A stretch of 41,202 nt of DNA from Actinomycetota bacterium. GTDB taxonomy: Bacteria > Actinomycetota > Thermoleophilia > Gaiellales > Gaiellaceae. Positions 11,755 through 24,174 of the stretch are shown piece after piece; position 1 is the stretch's first letter; each line of letters opens with the position of its first letter. The notes beneath the pieces were generated by a model. It worked only from the letters and a program-made list of their open reading frames with translations. It did no database searches and was not told where the DNA came from. The DNA lies in assembly GCA_013695385.1 (NCBI GenBank), contig JACDAN010000030.1:1-41202 (forward strand), read 5' to 3'. The position numbers were made by a program, and so were the translations under genes.

Positions 11755-12645
11755 ATGGCACGTTCTGCCCAACGCCGAAACCGGCAACAGCGAGAGCGCC
11801 GGCCGACGCCTCGCCAGGCCACCCCGCCGCGCACTCCGGTCGCGTCCTACGAGGACACGATGTTCTTCCCGCGCCTGCGTCGGCAGGCGAAGTGGATGTT
11901 CGTCTTCCTCGCCGTCATCTTCGGACTCGGGTACGTGATCTTCAACGTCGGCGGGTCGATTCCCGGAACCGGCCTCGGCGACGTCCTCCAGGGCCTCGGC
12001 CAGAGCGCGGACACGGGTCCGTCGGTCGACGACTCCCGGGAGAAGATCCGGGAGCGTCCGAACGATCCGGCCGGCTACCGCAACCTCGCCACGGCGCTCC
12101 AGCGGCAGGGCCGCAACACCGAGGCGATCGAACCGCTGGAGAACTACGTGCGGCTTCGGCCAAAGGATCGCGACGCCCTCCAGCAGTTGGCCGGCCTCCA
12201 TCTCGCGCAGGCCCGGACGCATGAGGAACAGGGAACCGCGGCTCGAGCCCGCCTGACGGAGATCACCGGCGCTGACGTCTTCACTCCGAGTTCCCAGAGT
12301 CAATTTTCGCAGCAGTTCGGAAACCCCCAGATCACGAGCATCGAGGCGACCAAGCTCAACCAGCAGCTCAACCAGGCGTTTCTCGGCGTCCAGGAGTCCT
12401 ACAAGGAGGCGACGACCGTCCTCCAACGCCTGATCGCCGTCACGCCGGACGAGCTCGAGGCCGACGAGCCGCTCGTCTTCCTCCAGCTGGGCTCGGCGGC
12501 GGCCTCTGCGGGCGACCTGAAAGCCGCGGTCAAGGCCTACGAGCGTTACCTCGAGGTGGCGCCGGACTCCGCGAGTGCCGCTTCGGTTCGCGCGCAGCTC
12601 CCGCAGCTGCGTCAGGCCGCGAACCCCGGCAAGGGCAAGGGCTGA
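11755..12645 (+). CDS. Membrane-anchored TPR-repeat protein
   Basis: Basic N-terminus, one TM segment (WMFVFLAVIFGLGYVIF), then TPR-like helical repeats (YRNLATALQRQGRNTEAIEPLENYVRLRPKD...). Confidence 0.7.
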   Translation: MARSAQRRNRQQRERRPTPRQATPPRTPVASYEDTMFFPRLRRQAKWMFVFLAVIFGLGYVIFNVGGSIPGTGLGDVLQGLGQSADTGPSVDDSREKIRERPNDPAGYRNLATALQRQGRNTEAIEPLENYVRLRPKDRDALQQLAGLHLAQARTHEEQGTAARARLTEITGADVFTPSSQSQFSQQFGNPQITSIEATKLNQQLNQAFLGVQESYKEATTVLQRLIAVTPDELEADEPLVFLQLGSAAASAGDLKAAVKAYERYLEVAPDSASAASVRAQLPQLRQAANPGKGKG

Positions 12646-12685
12646 GGGACTAGACTCCGCGGAGCTTTTCTACCGGGGGAGACGC

Positions 12686-13051
12686 GTGAACTTCGACATC
12701 AAGACCGAGCAGCTCGAGAACTCCGCCTATGTGATCTCGCTTGCGGGTGAAGTCGACCTCTATACGGCCCCGGAGTTCAAGCAGCAGCTGCTCGAGGTGA
12801 TCAACAAGGGCGCGAAGGACGTCGTCGTCGACTTCTCGAACACGACCTTCATCGACTCGACGACGCTCGGTGTGCTGGTGGGCGGTGTCAAGCGGCTCCG
12901 CACCAACGAAGGTCAGCTCTCCCTCGTCTCCAGCGATCGCAACATCACGAAGATCTTCGAGATCACGGGGCTCGACCGCGTCTTCACGATCTACGGAAGT
13001 CGCGACGAAGCGGTCTCCGGCATGAACTCGGCGACCCAGCCCACCGCGTAG
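12686..13051 (+). CDS. STAS-domain anti-sigma-factor antagonist (SpoIIAA-like)
   Basis: Trimmed to the GTG at 12686, with GGGGGAG upstream. It contains LAGEVDLYTAPEFKQQL...VVVDFSNTTFIDSTTLGVLV...ITGLDRVF. Confidence 0.8.
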   Translation: MNFDIKTEQLENSAYVISLAGEVDLYTAPEFKQQLLEVINKGAKDVVVDFSNTTFIDSTTLGVLVGGVKRLRTNEGQLSLVSSDRNITKIFEITGLDRVFTIYGSRDEAVSGMNSATQPTA

Positions 13052-13052
13052 C

Positions 13053-13682
13053 TTGCGGGCCGAAGCGGCCGTCCTCCTCGTCCTCGGCTCCCTCGTGGTG
13101 GCGGGCTGCGGCACGGACGGATTGACCAACGAGTCCGCGGACGCCTCCCAAGGCAAGGCCCTCTTTCGGCAGAAGTGCGGCAGCTGCCACACGCTTCAGG
13201 AGGCCGGAACCCAGGGCTCGAAGGGCAACCCGGTCGGAGGGCCGAACCTTGACGACGCATTCCGCGGCCCGCGGAGCGAGGGGTTCGCGGAGAGCGCGAT
13301 CCTCGAGACGGTGCGCCACCAGATCGATTACCCGGTGCCTCCCATGCCGGAGAACCTGCTCGAGGACGAGGAGGCCGACGCCGTAGCGGTGTATGTCGCG
13401 GCCGTGGCCGCGAAGCCCGGCGTCAAGGTCACCGAGGTAGCCGGCGAGGACTCGAACGACCCGAAGGCACTCTTCAGGACCAACTGCGGCAGTTGCCACG
13501 TCCTCGCGGACGCCGGCACCGCCGGCAAGATCGGGCCGAATCTCGACCAGGCGAAGCCCTCGTTGAAGTACGCGATCAGCCAGATCACGAACGGCGGCAA
13601 CGGCATGCCGCCCTTCAAGGGCCAGCTCACCGAGGAGCAGATCGAGCTCCTCGCTGCTTATCTAGTTCGAGTCACGCGCTAG
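13053..13682 (+). CDS. Dihaem c-type cytochrome lipoprotein
   Basis: TTG start 1 nt after the STAS stop. It has the lipobox VVAGC, two CGSCH haem motifs, and a second module ending GGNGMPPF. Confidence 0.85.
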   Translation: MRAEAAVLLVLGSLVVAGCGTDGLTNESADASQGKALFRQKCGSCHTLQEAGTQGSKGNPVGGPNLDDAFRGPRSEGFAESAILETVRHQIDYPVPPMPENLLEDEEADAVAVYVAAVAAKPGVKVTEVAGEDSNDPKALFRTNCGSCHVLADAGTAGKIGPNLDQAKPSLKYAISQITNGGNGMPPFKGQLTEEQIELLAAYLVRVTR

Positions 13683-13739: not shown

Positions 13740-14387
13740 CTAGCCGTAAGCCGCCTCGCGCTCCGCGGCCAGGTCCACGACGACATGCGTGATCGGGACG
13801 TCGAAGCGCTCACGCGCCGCCCGGACTACACCACGCTCGAGCCACTGCGACCTGCCCTCGGGGTGCGTCGAGATGATCACCTCGTCAGCGCCGAAGGTTC
13901 GCAAGGCGTCCTCGAGTGCCTGAAGGGGATTGGCGTCACCCACTTCTCCCTGCGCCGTGATCCCGGCTTCCCGCAGCCGGGCCAGGCTCTCCGTCAGACG
14001 TCCCTGCGCACGCGCGCGTCCCGCATCCTCGTCCGAGGCGAAGTAGCGGACTCGGGAGACGAGAGCCGGGCAGACGATTCGGATCTGCTCGTCGATCCCC
14101 TCCGACCGGCGACGGATCTCGTCCCGAAGCCGCTCGCCACCGACGGTCTCGTTCGCAATCACCAGGATTCTCCGCTCACCGGGCGCACTTGGCCGGATCG
14201 TCCCTTGACGCGAAGGCTCTCGGCGAACTCGAATCACCGCTGCGGTCGCGGCGACCGTCAGAAGCAGGAAGACAGCTACCCCGAGCCACCTGTGGACCGC
14301 CGCGGCGAGCACGATGAGTGCGAAATAGCCGGCCGTGAGCCAGACCAGCCGGAACGCTTCCGCCTCATTCCGAAGTGGATTCCTCAC
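13740..14387 (-). CDS. Two-TM membrane protein with a C-terminal USP-like (HUP-class) domain, paralogous to 15031..15900
   Basis: ORF 13740..15044 trimmed to the GTG at 14387, with GGAGG 9 nt upstream. Two hydrophobic helices are followed by ILVIANETVGGERL...DEVIISTHPEGRSQWLER...VPITHVVVD. Confidence 0.7.
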   Translation of the reverse strand: MRNPLRNEAEAFRLVWLTAGYFALIVLAAAVHRWLGVAVFLLLTVAATAAVIRVRREPSRQGTIRPSAPGERRILVIANETVGGERLRDEIRRRSEGIDEQIRIVCPALVSRVRYFASDEDAGRARAQGRLTESLARLREAGITAQGEVGDANPLQALEDALRTFGADEVIISTHPEGRSQWLERGVVRAARERFDVPITHVVVDLAAEREAAYG

Positions 14388-14425
14388 GTCCCCGACCTCC
14401 GGTTCCCGCGAGAGTGTGGGGTCAT

Positions 14426-15034
14426 CTACAAGAGGTAGATCGTCGCGTACACCACGATCCACATTACGTCGACGAAGTGCCAATAGATTCCGGGGATCTC
14501 GACACCGTGGTGGTGTGCCGGCGTGAAGTGGCCGCGGAAGGCGCGGATGGTGGCAAACGTCAGCAGCGTGAGTCCCACGAAGACGTGGGCCCCGTGGAGA
14601 CCGGTGAGACCGTAGAAGATCGTTCCGAAGGCGCCGTCGGCGGGAGAGAAGCCGACGCGCGAATACTCGCGGAACTGCGTCAGGAGGAAGGTCACACCGA
14701 GCGCGAGCGTCAACACGAGCCCGGCCTGGAGGCCGGCTCGGTTGCCGCGCTTGATCGACTGGAGCGCCCAGTGGATCGTGAAGCTCGAGGTGACGAGGAT
14801 CGCCGTGTTCACGCCTGCGACGAACTTCGGCAACTCGAACGGCTCGAGCGGCCACTCCGCGCCGGCGTTCACCCGCACGAAGAAGTACGCGGTGAAGAAC
14901 GACCCGAAGAGCATCACCTCGGAGGCGATGAAGAGAAGCATGCCGAGCGTCGGGGCGTCGACCCGAGAGCTCTGGTTCGCGGTGGGCGGATGGAGATGGC
15001 CTCCGCCGTGCGGGGTCTCCGAGTGGGCGCTCAT
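14426..15034 (-). CDS. ctaE: Cytochrome c oxidase subunit III
   Basis: 202 aa, hydrophobic, with ...GMLLFIASEVMLFGSFFTAYF... and ...GLHGAHVFVGL.... Its ATG overlaps the upstream stop (ATGA). Confidence 0.9.
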   Translation of the reverse strand: MSAHSETPHGGGHLHPPTANQSSRVDAPTLGMLLFIASEVMLFGSFFTAYFFVRVNAGAEWPLEPFELPKFVAGVNTAILVTSSFTIHWALQSIKRGNRAGLQAGLVLTLALGVTFLLTQFREYSRVGFSPADGAFGTIFYGLTGLHGAHVFVGLTLLTFATIRAFRGHFTPAHHHGVEIPGIYWHFVDVMWIVVYATIYLL

Positions 15035-15900
15035 TCCGCGGCAACCACGGGGGGATCCGCGTCGACCTCGCCCGCCGCGATAACGACGTGCTCGACGGGA
15101 AGCTTCGAGTCGTTGTGGAGCCGCTGGATGAGATTCCGGCGGAGCCAGGGCGATCTCGCAGGCTCGAAGGTGGAGACGATCACTTCGTCGATCCGCTCGT
15201 CCCGGATCGCCTGCATCGCGGCCGTATAGGGATCCGGATGCGAGACCTGACCGTGGGCTTCGATGCCGGCAGCACGAAGCTCGGAGAGGGCGCGGCGAAG
15301 ACGGCGTTCCGCCTCAGGATGCGCCGACTGGGCCGGGTCGCTCTGCGGTGAGATGACGAGAAAGCTCGCCGGGCCGCGCTCGGCCCACTCTCGGATCCGC
15401 GCGATCAGCCTTTCCCCGAGCACGGTCTCGTTCGCGATTACAAGGACGTTCGTCTGACCGTCGCCCTCCGTGGACACGTCGACGACTACGTGCTCGAGCG
15501 GGACGTCTCCCACGACCCTGCGAACGCGGTCGACGACGCTCTTGCGAATCCAGCCGGACTTCTGGAGCGGATGCGTGGAGAGGATCACGTCGGTGGGACG
15601 CGGGTCGAGCATCCCGAAGGCGTCCCGTACGGCGTCGGCGGGGTCGTTCTCGACGACGAGCCCGTGAGCAGGGATCCCCGCTTCGCGAAGCAGGGCCAGC
15701 GTGCGGTCGAGGCGTCGGCCGGCCGCGGCGCGCCTCGTGTCCGTGTAGACGACGTATCCCGACTGCGGTGTCGAGACTGGGGCCAGCACGGTAACGAGCT
15801 CGACGTCCTGCTCGTCCGCCCGCTTCTTCACCGCCTCGAGCAGCGACGTCCCCATGACGGTCTCGTTCGCGACGACGAGAATGTGCCTGCCGCCCGCCAT
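15031..15900 (-). CDS. Soluble protein with two tandem USP-like (HUP-class) domains of unknown function
   Basis: There are two internal repeats, each carrying ILVVANETV/VLVIANETV ... DVILSTHP..SGWIRK / EVIVSTFE..SPWLRR ... HVV. The start shares 1 nt with the ctaD stop and the stop overlaps the ctaE ATG. Confidence 0.75.
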   Translation of the reverse strand: MAGGRHILVVANETVMGTSLLEAVKKRADEQDVELVTVLAPVSTPQSGYVVYTDTRRAAAGRRLDRTLALLREAGIPAHGLVVENDPADAVRDAFGMLDPRPTDVILSTHPLQKSGWIRKSVVDRVRRVVGDVPLEHVVVDVSTEGDGQTNVLVIANETVLGERLIARIREWAERGPASFLVISPQSDPAQSAHPEAERRLRRALSELRAAGIEAHGQVSHPDPYTAAMQAIRDERIDEVIVSTFEPARSPWLRRNLIQRLHNDSKLPVEHVVIAAGEVDADPPVVAAE

Positions 15901-17765
15901 CAGCGTTGGACGGTCTCCGCCTCGCCGGTCGGAGCGCGCTCGCCGCTCAGAATCGCGTGCCGCGCGCCCGGCACGCCGTACTCATACGGATTTCCGACCA
16001 CCTGCGGGATCTCGTCGAAGTTGAAGAGCGGCGGCGGCGAGGAGACCTGCCACTCGAGCGTCAGCGCGCGCCACGGGTTCGACGGCGCCGGCTTTCCGCT
16101 GCGCCAGCTGACGATCATGTTGTAGACGAAGATGATGAACGAGGCGCCCAGCACGAACGACGAGATCGTGATGAAGAGGTTCCAGTTCCCGAACTGCGGG
16201 TCATAGGTGTAGACCCGGCGCGGCATCCCCTGCACGCCGATGATGTGCATCGGGAAGAAGGTCGCGTTGAAGGCCAGGAAGCTCAACCAGAAATGGACCT
16301 TGCCGAGCGTCTCGTTGTACATCCGGCCGGTCATCTTGGGGAACCAGTAGTAGATCCCGGCGAAGATCGTGAAGAGCGATCCGCCGAGGAGCACGTAGTG
16401 GATGTGGGCGACGACGAAGTAGGTGTCCGAGGTGTGGATGACGATCGGGACTGCGCCGAGGAAGATCCCGGAAAGTCCACCGATCACGAACATGGAGACG
16501 AAGCCGACGGCCCATAACATCGGCGTCGCGAAGTTGATCCGCCCCTCCCACGTCGTGGCTAACCACGAGAACACCTTGATCCCGGTCGGCACCGCGATCA
16601 ACAGGGTGGTGACCATCATCGGAACCCGCAGCCAGGGCGCCATTCCCGCCACGAACATGTGGTGGGCCCAGACCGAGAAGCCGAGGATGAGGATCGCCAT
16701 CAGCGAGAGCGCCATCAGCCTGTAGCCGAAGATCGGCTTCCTCGACATCGCGGAGATCACCTCCGAGGCGATCCCGAAACCGGGCAGCATCATGATGTAG
16801 ACCGCGGGGTGGGAGTAGAACCAGAAGATGTGCTGGTACCCGAGCGGGTAGCCGCCTTCGGCGAAGTCGAAGAAGTTCGTGTGCATCACCTTGTCGAACA
16901 TCACGAAGAACTGCGACCCGGCGATGAACGGGGTCGCGATCACGACGAGAAGTGACGTGGTGAAGTTGGCCCAGACGAGCAGTGGCATGCGCCAGAAGGT
17001 CATGCCGGGCGCTCGCATCGTGATGATCGTGACCAGGAAGTTCAGCGCCGTGGCGATCGACGAGGCACCGGCCCACTGGACGGCCATCGAGAAGAAGACG
17101 TTGCCGAACGGCTGCTCGACCGCAAGCGGCGCGTAGTTCGTCCAGCCGGCGCCGAAGCCGGGGAAGAAGAAGCTCGCGAGCATCATGATCCCCGCGATCG
17201 GAAGCAGCCAGTAGGAGAGGGCGTTCAGCCTCGGGAACGCCATGTCGGGCGCTCCGATCATGATCGGCAGCACGTAGTTCGCGAGCCCGGCGAAGGCAGG
17301 GATCACGAAGAGGAAGATCATCAGCGCCGCATGCGCCGTGAAGAGCTCGTTGTACGTCTGCGGGTCGACGAAGTTCGCCTCCGGACGCGCGAGCTCGGCG
17401 CGGACGAGCATGGCCAGCATCCCGCCGACCAGGAAGAAGACGATCGTCGTCGTGACGTACTGGATGCCGATCACCTTGTGGTCGGTGTTGATCCGGAAGT
17501 AGTCGCTCCAACTCCTGGCGCCGTGGCCCGAGTGGTCGTCGGGCCTGGTTGGAGCGCCGAACGCCCAGCCGAGCCAGTAGTCGAACGCACCGAGGCCCGA
17601 GAGGAAGCCGATCGGGGCCATCGTCAGCGCGGCAACGGTGATGATCGGCTCCCAGTCGATCGCCGGGTCCCAGCCGGCGAAGGCCCGGATCCCGGCGACG
17701 AGGCCGAAGCCGATCCCGAAGAAGAGCGCGGTCATCCAGGCGGCGCGAAGCCAGCCCGGTGCCAA
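15900..17765 (-). CDS. ctaD: Cytochrome c oxidase subunit I with an N-terminal two-TM extension
   Basis: Contains INTDHKVIGIQY, WAHHMF and HIHYVLLGG. The start is uncertain: TTG 17765 (used here), ATG 17735, or GTG 17951. The last would overlap ctaC by 80 nt. Confidence 0.9.
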   Translation of the reverse strand: MAPGWLRAAWMTALFFGIGFGLVAGIRAFAGWDPAIDWEPIITVAALTMAPIGFLSGLGAFDYWLGWAFGAPTRPDDHSGHGARSWSDYFRINTDHKVIGIQYVTTTIVFFLVGGMLAMLVRAELARPEANFVDPQTYNELFTAHAALMIFLFVIPAFAGLANYVLPIMIGAPDMAFPRLNALSYWLLPIAGIMMLASFFFPGFGAGWTNYAPLAVEQPFGNVFFSMAVQWAGASSIATALNFLVTIITMRAPGMTFWRMPLLVWANFTTSLLVVIATPFIAGSQFFVMFDKVMHTNFFDFAEGGYPLGYQHIFWFYSHPAVYIMMLPGFGIASEVISAMSRKPIFGYRLMALSLMAILILGFSVWAHHMFVAGMAPWLRVPMMVTTLLIAVPTGIKVFSWLATTWEGRINFATPMLWAVGFVSMFVIGGLSGIFLGAVPIVIHTSDTYFVVAHIHYVLLGGSLFTIFAGIYYWFPKMTGRMYNETLGKVHFWLSFLAFNATFFPMHIIGVQGMPRRVYTYDPQFGNWNLFITISSFVLGASFIIFVYNMIVSWRSGKPAPSNPWRALTLEWQVSSPPPLFNFDEIPQVVGNPYEYGVPGARHAILSGERAPTGEAETVQR

Positions 17766-17871
17766 GAGGCGCCGCCACCCAGTGCGCGGGGGGGCGGGTG
17801 CGTGCGCCTCGTCGTGCCCGGTGTGCTCGTGAACGGTGCTCAGCTCGACCCCCCTGTGGCCGCGGATTCCA

Positions 17872-18663
17872 TCACGGCGACGTGTCTCCGTTCTCGCCGC
17901 TCGGACTGCGGCGCCAACGCTCGAACTCGGCGGCGGAGGTGACGATCGCACGACTCCGCATCAGCGCGTGGCCGAGGCCGCAGAGCTCGGTGCAGATGAC
18001 CGGGTAGTCGCCTCTCTTCGTGGGCGTGATGGTGATGGCCGTGGTCATACCGGGAACCGCGTCCTGCTTCAGGCGGAACTCGGGCACGAAGAAGGAGTGG
18101 ATCACCTCGCGGGCCGTGAGGTAGAGGCGGGTGGAACGGCCGACCGGAAGCCGCAGGTTGGGCGACGTCTTGCAGCGGTCGGCGATCAAACGCGTCTCCC
18201 GGTCGATGCAGGCGAGCTTGTGCTTGCCCACCTCCATTCCCTCCTCGGGGTACGCGAAGACCCACGCGAACTGCTGCCCGAGCACCTCGACGCGCAGATG
18301 ATCGGCGGGGACCCTGTCGTTTCGGGCAAGAGCAACCGAGCTCACGACCAGCATGGCGACGACGAGGATCAGCGGGACGACCGTCCAGACGATCTCGATC
18401 CCGGTGTGGCCGTGGACGGGCGGGCCGTCCGAGTCGTCGTCCGGGCGAACGCGAAACTTGACGAACGAGTACACGCTGATCGCCGCGACGATGGCGAAGA
18501 TGCCGATGCAGATCGCCGTCACGAACCAGAAGACGAAGTCGGTGCGTCCGGCCTCCTCCGAGGCTTGATCGGGCAGCCAGGGGACGAAGATCGCCACCGC
18601 CGTAGCCGCCGCAGCGAGCAGGAGAGCGACCAAGATAACTCGAATCAGCGGCCCAGCGCGCAC
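17872..18663 (-). CDS. ctaC: Cytochrome c oxidase subunit II (CuA, no fused cytochrome c)
   Basis: Two N-terminal TM helices, VIHSFFVPEF, and the CuA motif CTELCGLGHALM. GTG start. Confidence 0.9.
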   Translation of the reverse strand: MRAGPLIRVILVALLLAAAATAVAIFVPWLPDQASEEAGRTDFVFWFVTAICIGIFAIVAAISVYSFVKFRVRPDDDSDGPPVHGHTGIEIVWTVVPLILVVAMLVVSSVALARNDRVPADHLRVEVLGQQFAWVFAYPEEGMEVGKHKLACIDRETRLIADRCKTSPNLRLPVGRSTRLYLTAREVIHSFFVPEFRLKQDAVPGMTTAITITPTKRGDYPVICTELCGLGHALMRSRAIVTSAAEFERWRRSPSGENGDTSP

Positions 18664-18764: not shown

Positions 18765-18998
18765 ATGGGACTCGGAGTTAGCCTCTTGCTGATCGCGGTC
18801 GGAGCCATCCTGGTATGGGGGCTCCAGAGTGACGTCGCGGGGATCGACGAAGACGCCATCGGCGTCATCCTCATGATCATCGGCGCTGCGGGCATGCTGC
18901 TCTCGATGCTCTTCTGGTCGAGCTGGGGTGGGCCTGGATACTTCGGCGGACGCCGGCGCTCGACCTACGTCGAGGACGGTCCCCCGCCACCCCCCTAA
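18765..18998 (+). CDS. Small two-TM membrane protein (DUF6458-like)
   Basis: ATG with AAGGAGG 6 nt upstream. Two hydrophobic helices are followed by a Gly/Arg/Pro-rich tail. Confidence 0.65.
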   Translation: MGLGVSLLLIAVGAILVWGLQSDVAGIDEDAIGVILMIIGAAGMLLSMLFWSSWGGPGYFGGRRRSTYVEDGPPPPP

Positions 18999-19013
18999 AG
19001 AAAGAGGCAAATG

Positions 19014-19038
19014 GCGCGGGCGCAACGGGCGCCCGCGC
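19014..19038 (+). terminator. 10-bp GC hairpin (GCGCGGGCGC / GCGCCCGCGC, 5-nt loop)
   Basis: Read directly. It lies between the stop at 18998 and the kinase ATG at 19049. Confidence 0.45.
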
Positions 19039-19048
19039 TCACCACCTG

Positions 19049-19798
19049 ATGAACACAAGCGGCAAAAGCGGCAACGAAAGACGGATCCGGGAGCTCGAGG
19101 AGCGCCTGGCCGAGCTCGAACGGGTGGACGACGTCAAGACGCAGTTCATCTCGATCGCCTCCCACGAGCTGCGAACACCCATCGCCGTCGTCCATGGGAT
19201 CGCCTCGACCCTCTACCTTCGCGGCGATCTGCTCTCCGGAGACCAGCTCCACGACCTGCGAGCGACGCTCTACAGCCAGACCGGTCGGCTGTCGTCTCTG
19301 ACGGAGCAGCTGCTCGACCTGTCGCGGCTCGACGCGGACGCCATCGTCCTTCAGCCTGAACGCTTCCGGCCGCGCGAGAGGATCGACGAGCTCTTGACAC
19401 GCATCGCGCCCGACCGGGCCGATGACGTGCAGGTCGGGGTCGAGCCGGCCCTCGAGCTCTTCACCGACCCGAATGGGTTCGAGCGGGTGATCGGCAACCT
19501 GATCACGAACGCCCTTCGGTACGGCGCACCGCCGATCGAAGTGACGTCCATCCCCAGTAACGGAGTGGAGCTCGTGGTCGAGGATCGCGGGGAAGGCGTG
19601 CCTCTCGACTTCATTCCGCTCCTCTTCGAGCGGTTCGCTCAGGCGGACGGAGCGGGGTCGCACCGCGAGGGTGCGGGCCTCGGGCTGGCGATCGCGAAGT
19701 CGTTCGCGATCGCGCTCGGCGGGGACCTCCGCTACGAGGCGGCCCAGCCGTGCGGCGCGCGGTTCAGGTTCGAGCTCCCGCGCGAACTAGCGGCGTAG
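19049..19798 (+). CDS. Sensor-less cytoplasmic histidine kinase (coiled coil + HisKA + HATPase_c)
   Basis: H-box SIASHELRTPI, N-box GNLITNALRYG and G-boxes DRGEGV / GAGLGLAI. There is no TM or sensor domain, and no response regulator in the window. Confidence 0.8.
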   Translation: MNTSGKSGNERRIRELEERLAELERVDDVKTQFISIASHELRTPIAVVHGIASTLYLRGDLLSGDQLHDLRATLYSQTGRLSSLTEQLLDLSRLDADAIVLQPERFRPRERIDELLTRIAPDRADDVQVGVEPALELFTDPNGFERVIGNLITNALRYGAPPIEVTSIPSNGVELVVEDRGEGVPLDFIPLLFERFAQADGAGSHREGAGLGLAIAKSFAIALGGDLRYEAAQPCGARFRFELPRELAA

Positions 19799-20650
19799 AC
19801 CCGAGAGAGGATCGACCGCCGCGCCGCGGAGATGCACTTCGAAGTGCAGGTGCGGTCCGGTCGAGTTGCCACTCGAGCCGACGCGGCCCAGTCGCTGGCC
19901 AGACTCCACAGGCTGACCCACCCGCACGCCGATCTGCGAGAGGTGGGCATACGAGGTACGTGCCCCGGCGGCATGCGCGACGACGACGAGATTGCCCCAA
20001 CCTCCGAGGCTCCAGCCGGCAAACGTGACACGGCCGGCTGCAGAGGCGGATACCGGCGTGCCCGAGGGGGCGGGGTAGTCGAGGCCGCCATGGAAGCGGT
20101 TGCCGCGAGGACCGAAGACGTCGGTGTAGGGGCCTGCAACGGGGGGCGCAAGAGTCACCGGGCAGGTGGGGGCGGGCGCCTTCAGGGCGGTGACCACGAC
20201 CGAGCCCGCGCGCCCGTCGGCCGGAAGGCCGGCCCAGACCTGGAACTGTTTCAGGGCCCGCTCCGTGGAGACGCGGAAATAGCCGTCGAAGTTCCCGGAT
20301 GGGAACCCGTGGGAGGCCAGGGCGAACTGCAGGGCGGCAACGTCCCAGCCGCGAGCGTCTGCGACGAGGATGCGCTTCCCGAGCGGAGAACGCTTCCCGA
20401 AGAGCCCGAGTGCAGCTTTCGTGCGGGGTCCGGGTACTCCGTCGACGTCGATCCGCGCGCGACGCTGGAGACGGCGGACGGCGTTGGCAGTGCTCTCACC
20501 GAGCACGCCGTCGACGGTCCCGGCGTAGAAGCCTTTCTGGCGGAGCCCGACCTGAAGCGCCGCGATCTCCGGGTCACCGGCAGCCGTCGCCGGCGCAACG
20601 AGCGTCAAGGCAAAGAGACAGATAGCGGCGGCGGCGAGAAATCGGGACAT
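19787..20650 (-). CDS. Secreted M23 (LytM) peptidase with two peptidoglycan-binding domains
   Basis: Trimmed to the ATG at 20650 (MSRFLAAAAICLFALTLVAPATAAG, a signal peptide). It has PG_binding_1-like repeats (LQVGLRQKGFYAGTVDGVLG; LQFALASHGFPSGNFDGYF) and the M23 motifs HGGLDY and SSGNSTGPHLHFEV. Confidence 0.85.
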   Translation of the reverse strand: MSRFLAAAAICLFALTLVAPATAAGDPEIAALQVGLRQKGFYAGTVDGVLGESTANAVRRLQRRARIDVDGVPGPRTKAALGLFGKRSPLGKRILVADARGWDVAALQFALASHGFPSGNFDGYFRVSTERALKQFQVWAGLPADGRAGSVVVTALKAPAPTCPVTLAPPVAGPYTDVFGPRGNRFHGGLDYPAPSGTPVSASAAGRVTFAGWSLGGWGNLVVVAHAAGARTSYAHLSQIGVRVGQPVESGQRLGRVGSSGNSTGPHLHFEVHLRGAAVDPLSGLRR

Positions 20651-20807
20651 GGGAGTACCCGCCTGTCCCATCGGTGTCACGCTGCGGGCTGACCTACCCC
20701 ATTCGGGGGATATCACGGCTCGCGCTTTCGCCGGAAGCCGGCGCCGCTCTGCGGCGCGCGGCTCGATTGACTGATCTAGCGCCGTCCCGCTGCTTCGATG
20801 TCTTCGA

Positions 20808-20832
20808 GCGGAACGGGCAAAGCCCGTTCCGC
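20808..20832 (-). terminator. 11-bp perfect hairpin 6 nt after the sodA stop
   Basis: 20808-20818 pairs with 20822-20832, with an AAA loop. No U-tract, which resembles the hairpin-only (tract-less) terminators reported in GC-rich bacteria (recalled, not checked here). Confidence 0.5.
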
Positions 20833-20837
20833 CGCCC

Positions 20838-21443
20838 CTAGAGTGCCTGCTCGTATCGCCGACTCACCTCTGGCCAGTTGACGACGTTCCACCACGCGGC
20901 GAGATAGTCCGGACGGCGGTTCTGGTAGCGGAGGTAGTAGGCGTGCTCCCATACGTCGATTCCGAGGATCGGCGTCCTCCCATCGGTGACCGGTGAATCC
21001 TGGTTCGGGGTGGAGGTCAACGCCAGGGAGCGGTCGTCGACGACGAGCCATGTCCACCCGCTCCCGAAGCGCTTGACGCCCCCGTCGTTCACCCCGGTCT
21101 TCAGCTCGTCGAGCCCTCCGAACGTTTCCTGAATCGCCTCCGCGAGAGCACCCTTCGGCTCCCCGCCACCGTCTGGGCTCATGATCTCCCAGAAGAGGGC
21201 GTGATTGGCGTGGCCGCCGGCGTTGTTCCGCACCGCCATCCGTTTCTCCTCGGCTACGCGGTCGAGGCTTCGCAGGATCTCCTCCACAGGACGATCGGCG
21301 AGATCGGTCCCCTCGAGGGCGGCGTTCGCGTTGTCCACGTAGGCCTGGTGATGCTTGTCGTGGTGCACGCGCATCGTCTGCTCGTCGATGTGTGGCTCGA
21401 GGGCGGCATAGTCGTACGGGAGCGGGGGCAGTTCGAACGGCAT
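20838..21443 (-). CDS. sodA: Fe/Mn superoxide dismutase
   Basis: Contains [24 protein letters not shown] and [18 protein letters not shown]. Confidence 0.95.
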
Positions 21444-21520
21444 CTCTTCCTCCTCTACGGGCTCGAAGAGAGCTTAAGGGGCGCCGGCTCGTCCGCGTCG
21501 GCGAGAAAAATTACCGTGGC

Positions 21521-21526
21521 TATACT
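21521..21526 (+). promoter_or_regulatory. Possible -10 element (TATACT) for tRNA-Lys
   Basis: TATACT lies 11 nt upstream of the tRNA 5' end in an otherwise GC-rich context. I recognised no clear -35. Confidence 0.3.
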
Positions 21527-21537
21527 CGCCAGCCGCC

Positions 21538-21610
21538 GGGCCGTTAGCTCAGTTGGTAGAGCAGGGGACTCTTAATCCCAAGGTCGAAGGTTCGAATCCT
21601 TCACGGCCCA
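21538..21610 (+). tRNA. tRNA-Lys (anticodon CTT)
   Basis: Manual cloverleaf: acceptor GGGCCGT/ACGGCCC, D arm GCTC-AGTTGGTA-GAGC, anticodon stem-loop GGGGA-CTCTTAA-TCCCA, T arm GAAGG-TTCGAAT-CCTTC, discriminator A. CCA is not encoded. Confidence 0.9.
21568..21610 (+). repeat. att-like core, proximal copy (3' 43 nt of tRNA-Lys)
   Basis: 42/43 identical to 25162-25204 in the same orientation. Confidence 0.8.
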
Positions 21611-21672
21611 TAGGCGAATGCCCTGGAAACTTGGCTTTGTACGCCACAGCACGCCTGATGGCCCGCGGCACG

Positions 21673-21691
21673 GGTCAACGCAGGGTCAACA
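21673..21691 (+). repeat. 19-nt double-heptamer motif, copy 1 (GGTCAACGCAGGGTCAACA)
   Basis: Read directly, 63 nt after the tRNA 3' end. See copies at 24175 and 25046. Confidence 0.7.
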
Positions 21692-21723
21692 TCCCGTCCG
21701 TGCCGACCGTACCGAATCTGGAA

Positions 21724-21756
21724 TCCGGGCCGGAGGCGCCGTATCGCGCCCCCGGA
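21724..21756 (-). terminator. Imperfect GC hairpin downstream of the CLCA-like gene
   Basis: TCCGGG (21724-29) pairs with CCCGGA (21751-56), and the inner GGCGC (21735-39) pairs with GCGCC (21746-50). It lies 15 nt after the stop at 21771. Confidence 0.35.
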
Positions 21757-21770
21757 CACACGAGTTCGAG

Positions 21771-23999
21771 TCACCACTTCGCCTTGTGGGCCTTCTTCCA
21801 GCGGTCGACGAGTGCCTTCTGATTCTTGGGCACCGAGGGCGGGATCGGGTTGTAGCCCGTGATCGGCTCCTTGCCGGTCGGCCCCTCGCGGTCGACGGTC
21901 GCTGCGAGGAGCGCGCGCCGGCGGACCGCCGGGACCTTAACCTCCCGCTTCAAGTCCTCCGGCTTCAGGCCGGGGCGCTGGCGGTAGAGCTCGTCCAACT
22001 CGAGCACGAACTTGCCCGCGGCCTTCCGTGCGTCCACGACGATCAAGTACTGGCCGGGCATCTCGCCCTTCGTCTGGATGGTGGCCGTATACGTGAACGG
22101 CTCGTTCGGGTCGCCCTTGGCGCCGGTGTGCTCGGTGAACTTGAGCTTGACCCACTTGCCCGAGGGCGTCAGCGCCCATCCGGTCATCTGCGCGCCGGGG
22201 ACGGCGAACGGAGCCCGGAGCCGCGCCCTGACCTCGAGCTCGTTGCCGAGGCGGACGTGGGCATGGACGAGCGAGACGTCGAGCGAGATGTCGTCGTTGA
22301 CCTCGAACCCGACGGTGCGGAAGCGTGTCCCGCCGATCCCGGCGCCGGTGACGCGGACGGTCCACTTACCCCGCTTCGGGTTGTCGATCTCCCAGAAGCC
22401 GTACGGGTACTTGCCCGAGACGCGACGACGGCCGGCACCTGCGGTGATCAGGTTTCCGTCAGGGTCGATCACCCGCACGGTGAACTGTCGCTTCGGCTCG
22501 CTCCAGAGCGCGCCGAGCGTCGCGTGCGTGCTGCCCGCCGTGATCGGCACGGTGAACTCGAAGGAGCGGCGCGTTCCGGCCGACGCGCGTCTCTTGATCT
22601 CGCCGAAGTGCCAGTCGAACGGCGCTGCCTTGTCGGCGGCGGCGCCGTCGGGGCTGGCGCCGTCGATCGGGTTGAAGGAGACGATGCCGCCGTTCTCGCG
22701 GCTCTCGCCGGCGATCTGGACGAGCGCCTCCGTGATCGCCGTCGCCGCCTCGGCCGCCGACAGATCGCCGTCGATCGGGAAGTACGTACCACCGGTCGTA
22801 GTCGCGATGTTCGTGAGGAGGACCGCGTCCTGGTCGTTGCCGAGCCCGATCGTGTACACGCGCACGCCGTTCGCGCGCAGATCCGGGAGAACATCCTCGG
22901 CCGTCTCGGACCCGGCGTTCTGGAGGCCATCGGTGAACAGGATCATCACCTGGCTCGAGGCGCGGCCGCCCGAGACAATGTTGTTCAGGCCGGCGCGCAG
23001 CGCGTCGCCGATCGCGGTCTGCCCGCCGGCGGTGATCCCGTCGACGGCCGTGTGTCGCGTGTTCCGCCAGGTCGTCTGCGCGGCCGCGCCGGACGGCACC
23101 GCCGACTTCCCGAAGGCGAGCGACGCCGACCCCGCGTAGGTCACGAGCCCGAGCTCCTCGGCGGCGTTCACGTAGTCGACCCAGAAGTTCGCGCCGACCT
23201 TGAGCTGGTCGATCTTCGCACCGAGCATGCTGCCCGAGCGGTCGAGGACGAGCATGAAGCGCTGCACGGGAATCAACTGCGTGCAGACAACGGCCGAGGC
23301 CGCTGCAGGCGCGGCCTGCGTCGGCCCACCGGCGCCCGGTGCGGCCAGGCCGTACGGGATCCCGTTGTGGTTGGCGTCGTTCGCCATGTAGGTCCAGCAG
23401 GACTGATTGCCGTTGATGTTGTTCTGGTTGTTGTCGGCGGTCGCGTTGTGGTTGCCGGCGTGGCAGAACTCGGACGGCTGCCCGTTCTGCAGGGTCGCGG
23501 TGCCGCCGGTGAAGGCCGGGAAGAACGTGTCCCAGTCCGGGAAGTCGGCGCCCGCACCGTCGGTCCAACGCGTGTAGCCAGTCCAGGCGTAGCCCTCCAT
23601 GATCGACGCCTGCGTGGCGATGTTCCCGAGGCACGTCGAGCCGTTGTTGTATTCGTCACGGAGGTCGTAGAGGTAGTGGGACAGCTCGTGCGCGAGGATC
23701 GTCGGGTAGAACATGTGGTCCTGCGGCACGTCGAGCGACTCGAACGGGAACCACAGCCGCGCCCCCGTTGAGTTGGACCAGACGTCCGAGTCGAGATGGA
23801 CCCAGATATCGGCGTCCTTGCCGCCCATGCTGTTCGGCGAGATCAGCATCTGCCCGATCGACAGGGCGCCGTCGGTCGAGTCGTGGATGATTCGCGAGAC
23901 CCGCTCGAGCAGCTGGCACCAGAACCCCATCTCACCGGCGGCTGGCGTGAAGCGCAGTGAGACGACCAGGTTGAACTGCGAGCCTGACAGAAAACCCAT
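21771..23999 (-). CDS. CLCA-like zinc metalloprotease - Cys-rich - VWA - beta-sandwich multidomain protein, no signal peptide
   Basis: Trimmed to the ATG at 23999, with GGAGG 5 nt upstream. HELSHYLYDLRDEY has the same spacing as the CLCA catalytic motif HExxH-x6-DEY. The VWA MIDAS is LVLDRSGSM ... ILFTDG. About 300 aa of beta-rich sequence follow at the C-terminus. Confidence 0.85.
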   Translation of the reverse strand: MGFLSGSQFNLVVSLRFTPAAGEMGFWCQLLERVSRIIHDSTDGALSIGQMLISPNSMGGKDADIWVHLDSDVWSNSTGARLWFPFESLDVPQDHMFYPTILAHELSHYLYDLRDEYNNGSTCLGNIATQASIMEGYAWTGYTRWTDGAGADFPDWDTFFPAFTGGTATLQNGQPSEFCHAGNHNATADNNQNNINGNQSCWTYMANDANHNGIPYGLAAPGAGGPTQAAPAAASAVVCTQLIPVQRFMLVLDRSGSMLGAKIDQLKVGANFWVDYVNAAEELGLVTYAGSASLAFGKSAVPSGAAAQTTWRNTRHTAVDGITAGGQTAIGDALRAGLNNIVSGGRASSQVMILFTDGLQNAGSETAEDVLPDLRANGVRVYTIGLGNDQDAVLLTNIATTTGGTYFPIDGDLSAAEAATAITEALVQIAGESRENGGIVSFNPIDGASPDGAAADKAAPFDWHFGEIKRRASAGTRRSFEFTVPITAGSTHATLGALWSEPKRQFTVRVIDPDGNLITAGAGRRRVSGKYPYGFWEIDNPKRGKWTVRVTGAGIGGTRFRTVGFEVNDDISLDVSLVHAHVRLGNELEVRARLRAPFAVPGAQMTGWALTPSGKWVKLKFTEHTGAKGDPNEPFTYTATIQTKGEMPGQYLIVVDARKAAGKFVLELDELYRQRPGLKPEDLKREVKVPAVRRRALLAATVDREGPTGKEPITGYNPIPPSVPKNQKALVDRWKKAHKAKW

Positions 24000-24174
24000 A
24001 GCCCCTCCAGACGTGTCGAGGCCGCAGCAGGATGCTCTCAGGTGAGTGGCGATCATACCCCCACGCGCGCCGGCGTTTCAAGCGACCGAGCGGCGTCGGT
24101 GATACCGGCTCGGATCTTAATCCCTGCACATCCGGGGAGAGCCTGCATACCGGCGATCAGACGCGCCAGGGTGG

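Follow-up and report, generated by a model that had tools for sequence, protein, structure and literature searches.

Why should a gene for a soluble protein lie between the genes for two core subunits of a respiratory oxidase? The question is raised by contig JACDAN010000030.1 of the genome of a soil bacterium of the Gaiellaceae (Actinomycetota, class Thermoleophilia; assembly GCA_013695385.1), analysed here as a window of 41,202 nt, which is the whole stretch of DNA under study. On its minus strand a cta cluster runs in the order ctaC, ctaD, a 289-aa tandem-domain gene (P0001), ctaE and a 215-aa gene (P0002). A first-pass annotation, made from the letters of the DNA, had described this arrangement, had noticed that P0001 and P0002 carry three copies of one domain resembling universal stress proteins (USPs), and had proposed that both are dedicated partners of the oxidase. 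Its open reading frame (ORF) coordinates, strand and gene order were borne out by the ORF list together with Pfam and NCBIfam models, and the three tight junctions that it listed were each read in the sequence exactly as claimed. Our analyses make it likely that P0001 is soluble and cytoplasmic, a pair of TT0030-family domains with the USP fold, and that the A-type (aa3/caa3) oxidase of Thermoleophilia has gained it as a lineage-specific accessory module.

What the domain is was approached through its sequence and its predicted fold. P0001 consists of a first TT0030-like domain of approximately residues 1-146 (15463..15900, minus strand; 15460-15900 for the copy found in the genome search) and a second of approximately residues 147-289, which with the stop codon occupies 15031..15462 on the same strand. 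Both domains were delimited using an internal alignment, the genome search and an AlphaFold2 (AF2) model. The third copy forms the C-terminal part of P0002 (13740..14183 with the stop codon, minus strand) and was located by alignment and by a profile match over 13743-14183 with E=6.1e-74. The three copies are 35-40% identical over approximately 145 residues and have 36 invariant columns in common, including the ANETV, ST..S.W and P..HVV blocks, so that the shared motif blocks of the first-pass annotation are confirmed by alignment. BLASTP comparisons of copy against copy in relatives gave E values from 1e-15 to 1e-24, far beyond chance.

Pfam and NCBIfam scans of P0001 and P0002 returned no domain model above threshold. 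The Usp model (PF00582) fell short of its gathering threshold on P0001 (19.6 bits versus 24, E=1.4e-3, residues 5-91 only), and P0002 had no Usp match of any kind in the Pfam scan. The Usp, Exog_C, HGD-D and DotU matches to the two proteins were set aside as sub-threshold noise from which a family could not be assigned. A profile of the three copies matched TT0030 of Thermus thermophilus (PDB 2IEL) over its full length with E=1.5e-9, and a profile of 24 family sequences matched it with E=1.1e-20, aligning residues 3-137 of 138. Searched against the PDB, this 24-sequence profile found no classical USP structure, even at E<10; hhalign of the family profile with one neighbouring USP sequence was uninformative (probability 0.2). 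HMMER alignments show hallmark residues common to the family and TT0030, namely A..T following strand 1, S-T.P..S.W, and, at the last strand, P..H-V; the near-invariant columns of family alignment A2 are A12, T108, W116, P132 and H135. The family is large, with 4,607 clusters at 50% identity at E<=1e-3 and 2,239 at E<=1e-10. Among its 150 best-scoring representatives are single-domain and tandem proteins, COX1 fusions, and proteins extended at the N-terminus by >55 residues, the length expected for a membrane anchor of two helices.

The AF2 model of P0001 (predicted local distance difference test score, pLDDT, 82.9; predicted template-modelling score, pTM, 0.80) contains two beta-alpha domains with a five-strand pattern in each. 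The top Foldseek matches in the PDB were the tandem USPs TTHA0350, Rv2623 and UspE/YdaA (probability 1.00); the C-terminal regulatory domains of cation-chloride cotransporters, which are tandem and USP-like, came next. Compared with the P0001 domains, 2IEL gave target-normalised template-modelling (TM) scores of 0.70 for chain A and 0.77 for chain B, with a root-mean-square deviation of 3.3-3.8 Å over 134-137 columns. USPs of the MJ0577-type subgroup bind ATP through the motif G-2x-G-9x-G-(S/T), which the UspA-type subgroup also lacks. A regular-expression search for this motif found it in 0 of 355 family sequences (150 representatives, 120 TT0030-like proteins and 85 domains from loci) and in neither of the window proteins; the equivalent stretch reads S-T-H-P-x3-S-x-W. 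Given the match to TT0030, the USP-like fold, the sub-threshold Usp score and the absent ATP motif, the domain makes up a separate branch of the USP/HUP fold that has no name yet. The earlier description of the domain as USP-like and not canonical was therefore sound on the evidence of fold, Pfam score and motif. Its statement that the family could not be named holds in part: hidden Markov model search and structure prediction now place the domain in the TT0030/2IEL family, which is itself without known function.

Is the tandem gene tied to the oxidase, or is it a chance neighbour? We surveyed other genomes using the three-copy alignment as query, a search that returned Gaiellales only. The tandem gene lies inside the cta cluster in 80 of 80 Gaiellales loci from species genomes. 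It is preceded by ctaD in 77 and followed by ctaE in 79; in the others a contig end cuts the locus. The junctions measure no more than 30 nt in 69 of 77 cases between ctaD and the tandem gene and in 69 of 79 between the tandem gene and ctaE, where a 4-nt overlap is the commonest form. The domain as such was present in 96 of 301 sampled Actinomycetota genomes. Four further Thermoleophilia families keep the order while the tandem is 31-45% and CtaD 61-72% identical; three of these (f8, f10 and f11) have ctaD, tandem and ctaE as separate genes, with tandem identities of 32-45% and CtaD identities of 66-72%, and the fourth (f6) has a fused form. The same gene order was found inside a caa3-type operon in a metagenomic relative (L142). 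The ctaD-x-ctaE arrangement is thus conserved across Gaiellales and several families of Thermoleophilia. In a maximum-likelihood (ML) tree the oxidase-inserted domains all fall on one side with support 90/74, a placement that suggests a single recruitment, and the D2 copies from tandem genes of the separately encoded type (20 rows) are united in one clade, support 100/96.

This conservation bears on the simplest alternative, that P0001 is a general stress protein co-transcribed with the operon so that its level tracks respiration, with no physical contact with the oxidase. The family is indeed widespread as stand-alone genes in unrelated contexts, and classical USPs are often general stress proteins. 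However, the place between ctaD and ctaE has been kept despite the drift of the protein to such low identity, and repeated in-frame fusion to CtaD (see below) would be unexpected without interaction. We consider this explanation very improbable, the least probable of those weighed here.

The oxidase-module reading is also supported by lineages in which the domain has become part of subunit I. In family f5, represented by three genomes, CtaD is followed in frame by one domain, giving proteins of 803-804 aa (L007 3621-6032, minus strand; L008 3010-5424, plus strand; L010 2891-5302, plus strand). In family f6, the Miltoncostaeaceae, CtaD is joined to the whole tandem through a linker of approximately 15 residues in proteins of approximately 920 aa; this form spans three genera, including the isolate Miltoncostaea marina with its complete genome, and 55 protein clusters. 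Linkers in the fused forms overall have approximately 15-25 residues. A fusion was accepted only if the BLAST matches to CtaD and to the domain shared one stop-to-stop frame, and open frames of at least 900 aa in the genome searches were mostly alternative-frame artefacts of high-GC DNA. One candidate (L045), from an 'MFD...bin' metagenome-assembled genome (MAG) that we took to be a long-read assembly, was set aside as a possible indel artefact, and a 1116-aa 'COX1+COX3' protein (P0459) with truncated domains was treated as garbled. Cultured members include M. marina, which has the fusion, and Gaiella, Conexibacter and Solirubrobacter, in which the genes are separate.

Two further observations were made on the fused genes. 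The f5 fusions have a Shine-Dalgarno-like sequence, GGAGAGAGAGG, and an in-frame ATG 5 nt ahead of the domain, and the domain might also be made alone from this internal start. A different fusion, CtaD-CtaE in one reading frame and without a USP-like domain, was seen in a genome (G119) of Thermoleophilia family f7 (L147 2765-5236, plus strand). It resembles the subunit I/III fusion of Thermus caa3, and Thermoleophilia join oxidase parts in several ways.

With 80 of 80 loci, an order kept through drift to 31-45% identity and two fused lineages, the proposal of a dedicated oxidase partner can be upheld for the soluble tandem protein; it is weaker for the membrane protein P0002, discussed below. 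Several observations weigh against even the first half of this proposal. In Gaiellales families f2, f3 and f4 the ctaC-ctaD-ctaE genes are orthologous (CtaD 57-63% identical) and no gene separates ctaD from ctaE; their homologues of the domain, where present, sit elsewhere in the genome. Oxidases of this type can therefore do without the module. Beyond Thermoleophilia the domain occurs by itself or joined to membrane proteins of other kinds. None of the 14 Actinomycetota loci examined there adjoins cta genes, TT0030 adjoins lptFG in Thermus, and genes of amino-acid metabolism surround a homologue of unknown taxon with 53% identity to TT0030, all in keeping with a general-purpose family outside the class. 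An AF2 model of the Miltoncostaea fusion (pTM 0.60) has well-folded parts, a disordered stretch at residues 584-640 and no confident docking pose. As for the ligand, two neighbouring Usp-annotated proteins that were meant as positive controls for the ATP motif also lacked it, and the case for ligand binding would draw on loop conservation, the canonical USP ATP motif being absent. Because of the insert-free sister oxidases and the unlinked homologues outside the class, the module is an optional, lineage-specific add-on taken from a general-purpose domain family.

The junctions in the window indicate how the protein may be produced. The ctaD stop and the P0001 start share one base in TGATG (15902-15898), and the P0001 stop overlaps the ctaE start as ATGA. 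A scan for promoters and terminators within the operon gave nothing above shuffled expectation, which is weak evidence at best in a high-GC actinobacterium. P0001 would be expected to be made in step with CtaD and CtaE. A translationally coupled gene between those of subunits I and III is also what one might expect of an assembly or maturation factor that acts transiently on nascent CtaD, for example in haem a/CuB insertion or the joining of subunit III, and that stays outside the mature enzyme; dispensability in the sister lineages and the missing docking pose agree with such a role. Permanent covalent fusion to CtaD in two lineages would, however, be unusual for a transient chaperone. Known assembly factors (CtaG, Surf1 and Sco) are periplasm-facing or membrane proteins, P0001 is cytoplasmic, and the Pfam, NCBIfam and Foldseek results contained no likeness to known assembly factors. 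We think a role in assembly improbable, if less so than mere co-transcription.

How might an accessory module of the mature oxidase work? P0001 has no hydrophobic segment by hydropathy. A subunit I of 12 helices (2+12 in an AF2 model of the Miltoncostaea CtaD homologue, a natural fusion) has its C-terminus in the cytoplasm, and the linkers of the fused forms are short; for these reasons we place P0001 on the cytoplasmic side. It would dock there on the proton-uptake face of subunit I, near the C-terminal tail. The protein would not be needed for catalysis and may stabilise or regulate the oxidase. Regulation, if it occurs, would most likely use a small ligand in a classical Rossmann-type pocket and not the mode of a classical ATP-binding USP. 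Two conserved loops would line the putative pocket: A-N-E-T, which follows strand 1, and S-T-H-P...S.W, which follows strand 4. Polar residues are most conserved in the loops behind these two strands, the ligand-binding place of Rossmann-like HUP domains, which suggests such a pocket. Nucleotide or redox sensing, as suggested in the first-pass annotation, is speculation.

A bolder version of this mechanism would give Thermoleophilia oxidases a cytoplasmic ligand-sensing cap, of USP fold and with a non-canonical pocket, that throttles or locks the enzyme in response to some metabolite, for example a nucleotide, second messenger or signal of the energy state. We hold this to be doubtful. If true, it would parallel in bacteria the allosteric regulation of mitochondrial cytochrome c oxidase by nucleotides, or amount to a 'hibernation factor' of a respiratory complex in slow-growing soil bacteria.

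The membrane-anchored paralogue P0002 calls for a separate assessment. Its N-terminal part (14232..14387, minus strand) comprises a conserved NPLR.E.EAFR stretch and, by hydropathy, a two-helix membrane hairpin at residues 14-52. Basic residues stand on both flanks of the hairpin, and by the positive-inside rule both ends of the protein would be cytoplasmic. Genes of this type lie 3' of ctaE on the same strand in 71 of 80 Gaiellales loci, with a gap of no more than 30 nt in 52 of the 71; in the window the gap is 38 nt, with GGAGG 8 nt ahead of the GTG start at 14387. P0002 would be a membrane-anchored paralogue from a different family branch, co-operonic in Gaiellaceae and probably positioned beside the complex.

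The tie of P0002 to the oxidase is nevertheless weaker than that of P0001. It may be a USP-like protein with a membrane anchor that is independent of the oxidase, perhaps works for a different membrane system and merely neighbours the operon in Gaiellaceae. In other Thermoleophilia families the two-helix type is unlinked to cta (L103 and L109, homologues that also have the NPLR.E.EAFR motif), and in 5 of the 80 loci a cytochrome c gene takes its place. The ML tree groups it with stand-alone and soluble forms, apart from the oxidase-inserted domains, and no fusions of this type were seen. The frequent same-strand position close behind ctaE, and in the window the ribosome-binding site in a gap of only 38 nt, argue the other way. 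We regard an independent P0002 as a real possibility, to which we give somewhat less than even weight.

The oxidase genes themselves were identified with curated models. The contig, part of a Gaiellaceae-like MAG, has a GC content of 67%, and the nearest named homologues carry Gaiellaceae annotations; the assembly is 91.5% complete with a bin contamination of 2.6%. The ctaC gene (17872..18663, minus strand) encodes a subunit II of 263 aa without a fused cytochrome c domain. It matches Pfam COX2 and COX2_TM and scores 173.5 bits with TIGR02866 (cut-off 147.7), and the CuA motif C-x-E-x-C-x3-H-x2-M (CTELCGLGHALM) is readable in the translation. The ctaD gene (15900..17951, minus strand) encodes a subunit I of up to 683 aa in its longest ORF, with Pfam COX1 at E=7.8e-151 over residues 161-600 and TIGR02891 at 673.2 bits (cut-off 670.75). 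Its start is uncertain: ahead of the conserved part a single ATG, GTG or TTG codon stands in frame, the GTG at 17951, and from there the gene overlaps ctaC by 80 nt. The ctaE gene (14426..15034, minus strand) encodes a 202-aa subunit III of the five-helix type; Pfam COX3 gave E=2e-44 and 152.8 bits (cut-off 23.8), and NF050119 (aa3_CtaE_Actin) gave 131 bits, under its cut-off of 190. With subunits I, II and III all recognised by curated models, this is an A-type (aa3) cytochrome c oxidase operon. The NCBIfam 'exception' models specific to Actinomycetota each scored below their own cut-offs on the oxidase subunits. A search for CtaF (PF12270), the actinobacterial subunit IV, gave no above-cut-off match in the source genome, at its completeness of 91.5%, or in 20 relatives and did detect the control, Corynebacterium glutamicum; the earlier remark that ctaF is missing here was thus correct.

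Read from the GTG, CtaD has approximately 150 extra N-terminal residues ahead of its COX1 domain (17500-17951, residues 1-160), including two additional hydrophobic helices with hydropathy peaks at residues 70-93 and 103-121. A 'DHSxHGA.SW' stretch, cytoplasmic and immediately ahead of canonical helix 1, is invariant in 47 Miltoncostaeaceae fusions. CtaD of the L142 relative has a longer N-terminal extension that matches Pfam DUF4389. Co-variation of the extension with the USP-like insert was ruled out, as the extension also occurs in the insert-free sister families. A contig of 2.2 kb in the same bin (C259; L004 1-1946) carries a second ctaD; behind it, with stop/start overlap, begins another tandem-domain gene, clearly different from the window copy. 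The bin may thus hold two oxidase operons, or else this contig stems from a related population; two such loci were also seen in one other MAG, SMAG_U9330 (L019 and L089).

Convergent to the operon lies a gene for a dihaem c-type cytochrome (13053..13682, plus strand; Pfam Cytochrome_CBB3 twice and Cytochrom_C). It adjoins the operon in 72 of the 80 Gaiellales loci and likely encodes the electron donor of the oxidase; relatives with caa3-type operons have a cytochrome c domain fused to CtaC instead. Together with a gene for a STAS-domain protein resembling anti-sigma-factor antagonists it occupies 12575-13682 on the plus strand, a convergent neighbourhood kept in most of the 80 loci. Upstream of ctaC (18765-24056) are genes for a small DUF6458-like membrane protein (sub-threshold), a 249-aa sensor-less histidine kinase core (HisKA and HATPase_c), an M23 peptidase with two peptidoglycan-binding domains, an Fe/Mn superoxide dismutase and a 761-aa VWA-domain protein with a zincin-like HELSH motif. 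These neighbours look ordinary.

The setting of the module gives the finding its interest. Haem-copper oxidases are among the best-studied membrane enzymes, and to our knowledge those of bacteria are usually described with three or four membrane subunits and no cytoplasmic regulatory domain. A class-wide soluble USP-fold partner, joined in some lineages to the catalytic subunit itself, would add a new type to the known supernumerary subunits, and it would supply the orphan TT0030 family, with its roughly 4,600 clusters, with a first functional context. Thermoleophilia (Gaiellales, Solirubrobacterales and Miltoncostaeales) are very abundant in soils and their physiology is little known; a control module on the terminal oxidase could bear on their survival under energy limitation. 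Our search of the accessible literature turned up no account of a USP-like protein partnering a haem-copper oxidase, nor anything relevant on TT0030 or Miltoncostaea, and we know of no USP-type module described for such an enzyme. To judge from the fusions to the catalytic subunit, the domain is probably a so far undescribed cytoplasmic add-on of the respiratory enzyme.

Compared with known systems, the closest relative in sequence is TT0030 (PDB 2IEL), a structural-genomics 'hypothetical protein' that belongs to the same family as the window domain by a match over the whole domain. Unlike the tandem P0001 it is a single stand-alone domain of 138 aa, its Thermus neighbours are lptF/lptG and an alcohol dehydrogenase gene and not an oxidase, and it carries H-R where the window family has the N-E of the ANET loop. 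As it has no known function, the match gives a family name and not a role. The tandem USPs TTHA0350, Mycobacterium tuberculosis Rv2623 and UspE/YdaA (PF00582) resemble P0001 in having two USP-fold domains per chain; global superposition is poor, however, with a TM score of approximately 0.3, and the packing of the domains may differ.

In concept P0001 is comparable to the mitochondrial subunits COX4, 5a, 5b and 6a and to actinobacterial CtaF, which are likewise non-catalytic add-ons to the I-II-III core. Some mitochondrial supernumerary subunits mediate nucleotide-dependent regulation. These proteins have no sequence or fold relation to P0001, whose membership in the complex is proposed from its conserved gene position and the natural fusions to CtaD. 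A TT0030-like domain on another membrane protein was seen at L122 (1495-3444, minus strand), where it forms the C-terminus of a protein of >649 aa that by eye resembles an amino-acid permease; the product of a neighbouring gene, of 327 aa, resembles a tandem USP when judged by eye and does not have the ATP motif. This locus suggests that the domain may serve generally as a cytoplasmic tail of membrane proteins. The nearest functional parallels are the cation-chloride cotransporters (NKCC, KCC and NCC) and the USP domain of KdpD, in which a cytoplasmic (tandem) USP-fold module, carried C-terminally by a polytopic membrane protein, acts as a regulatory or dimerisation unit. Homology to these is limited to the fold and the membrane partner differs. 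The type of module is thus a known one, and what appears to be new is its partner, a haem-copper oxidase.

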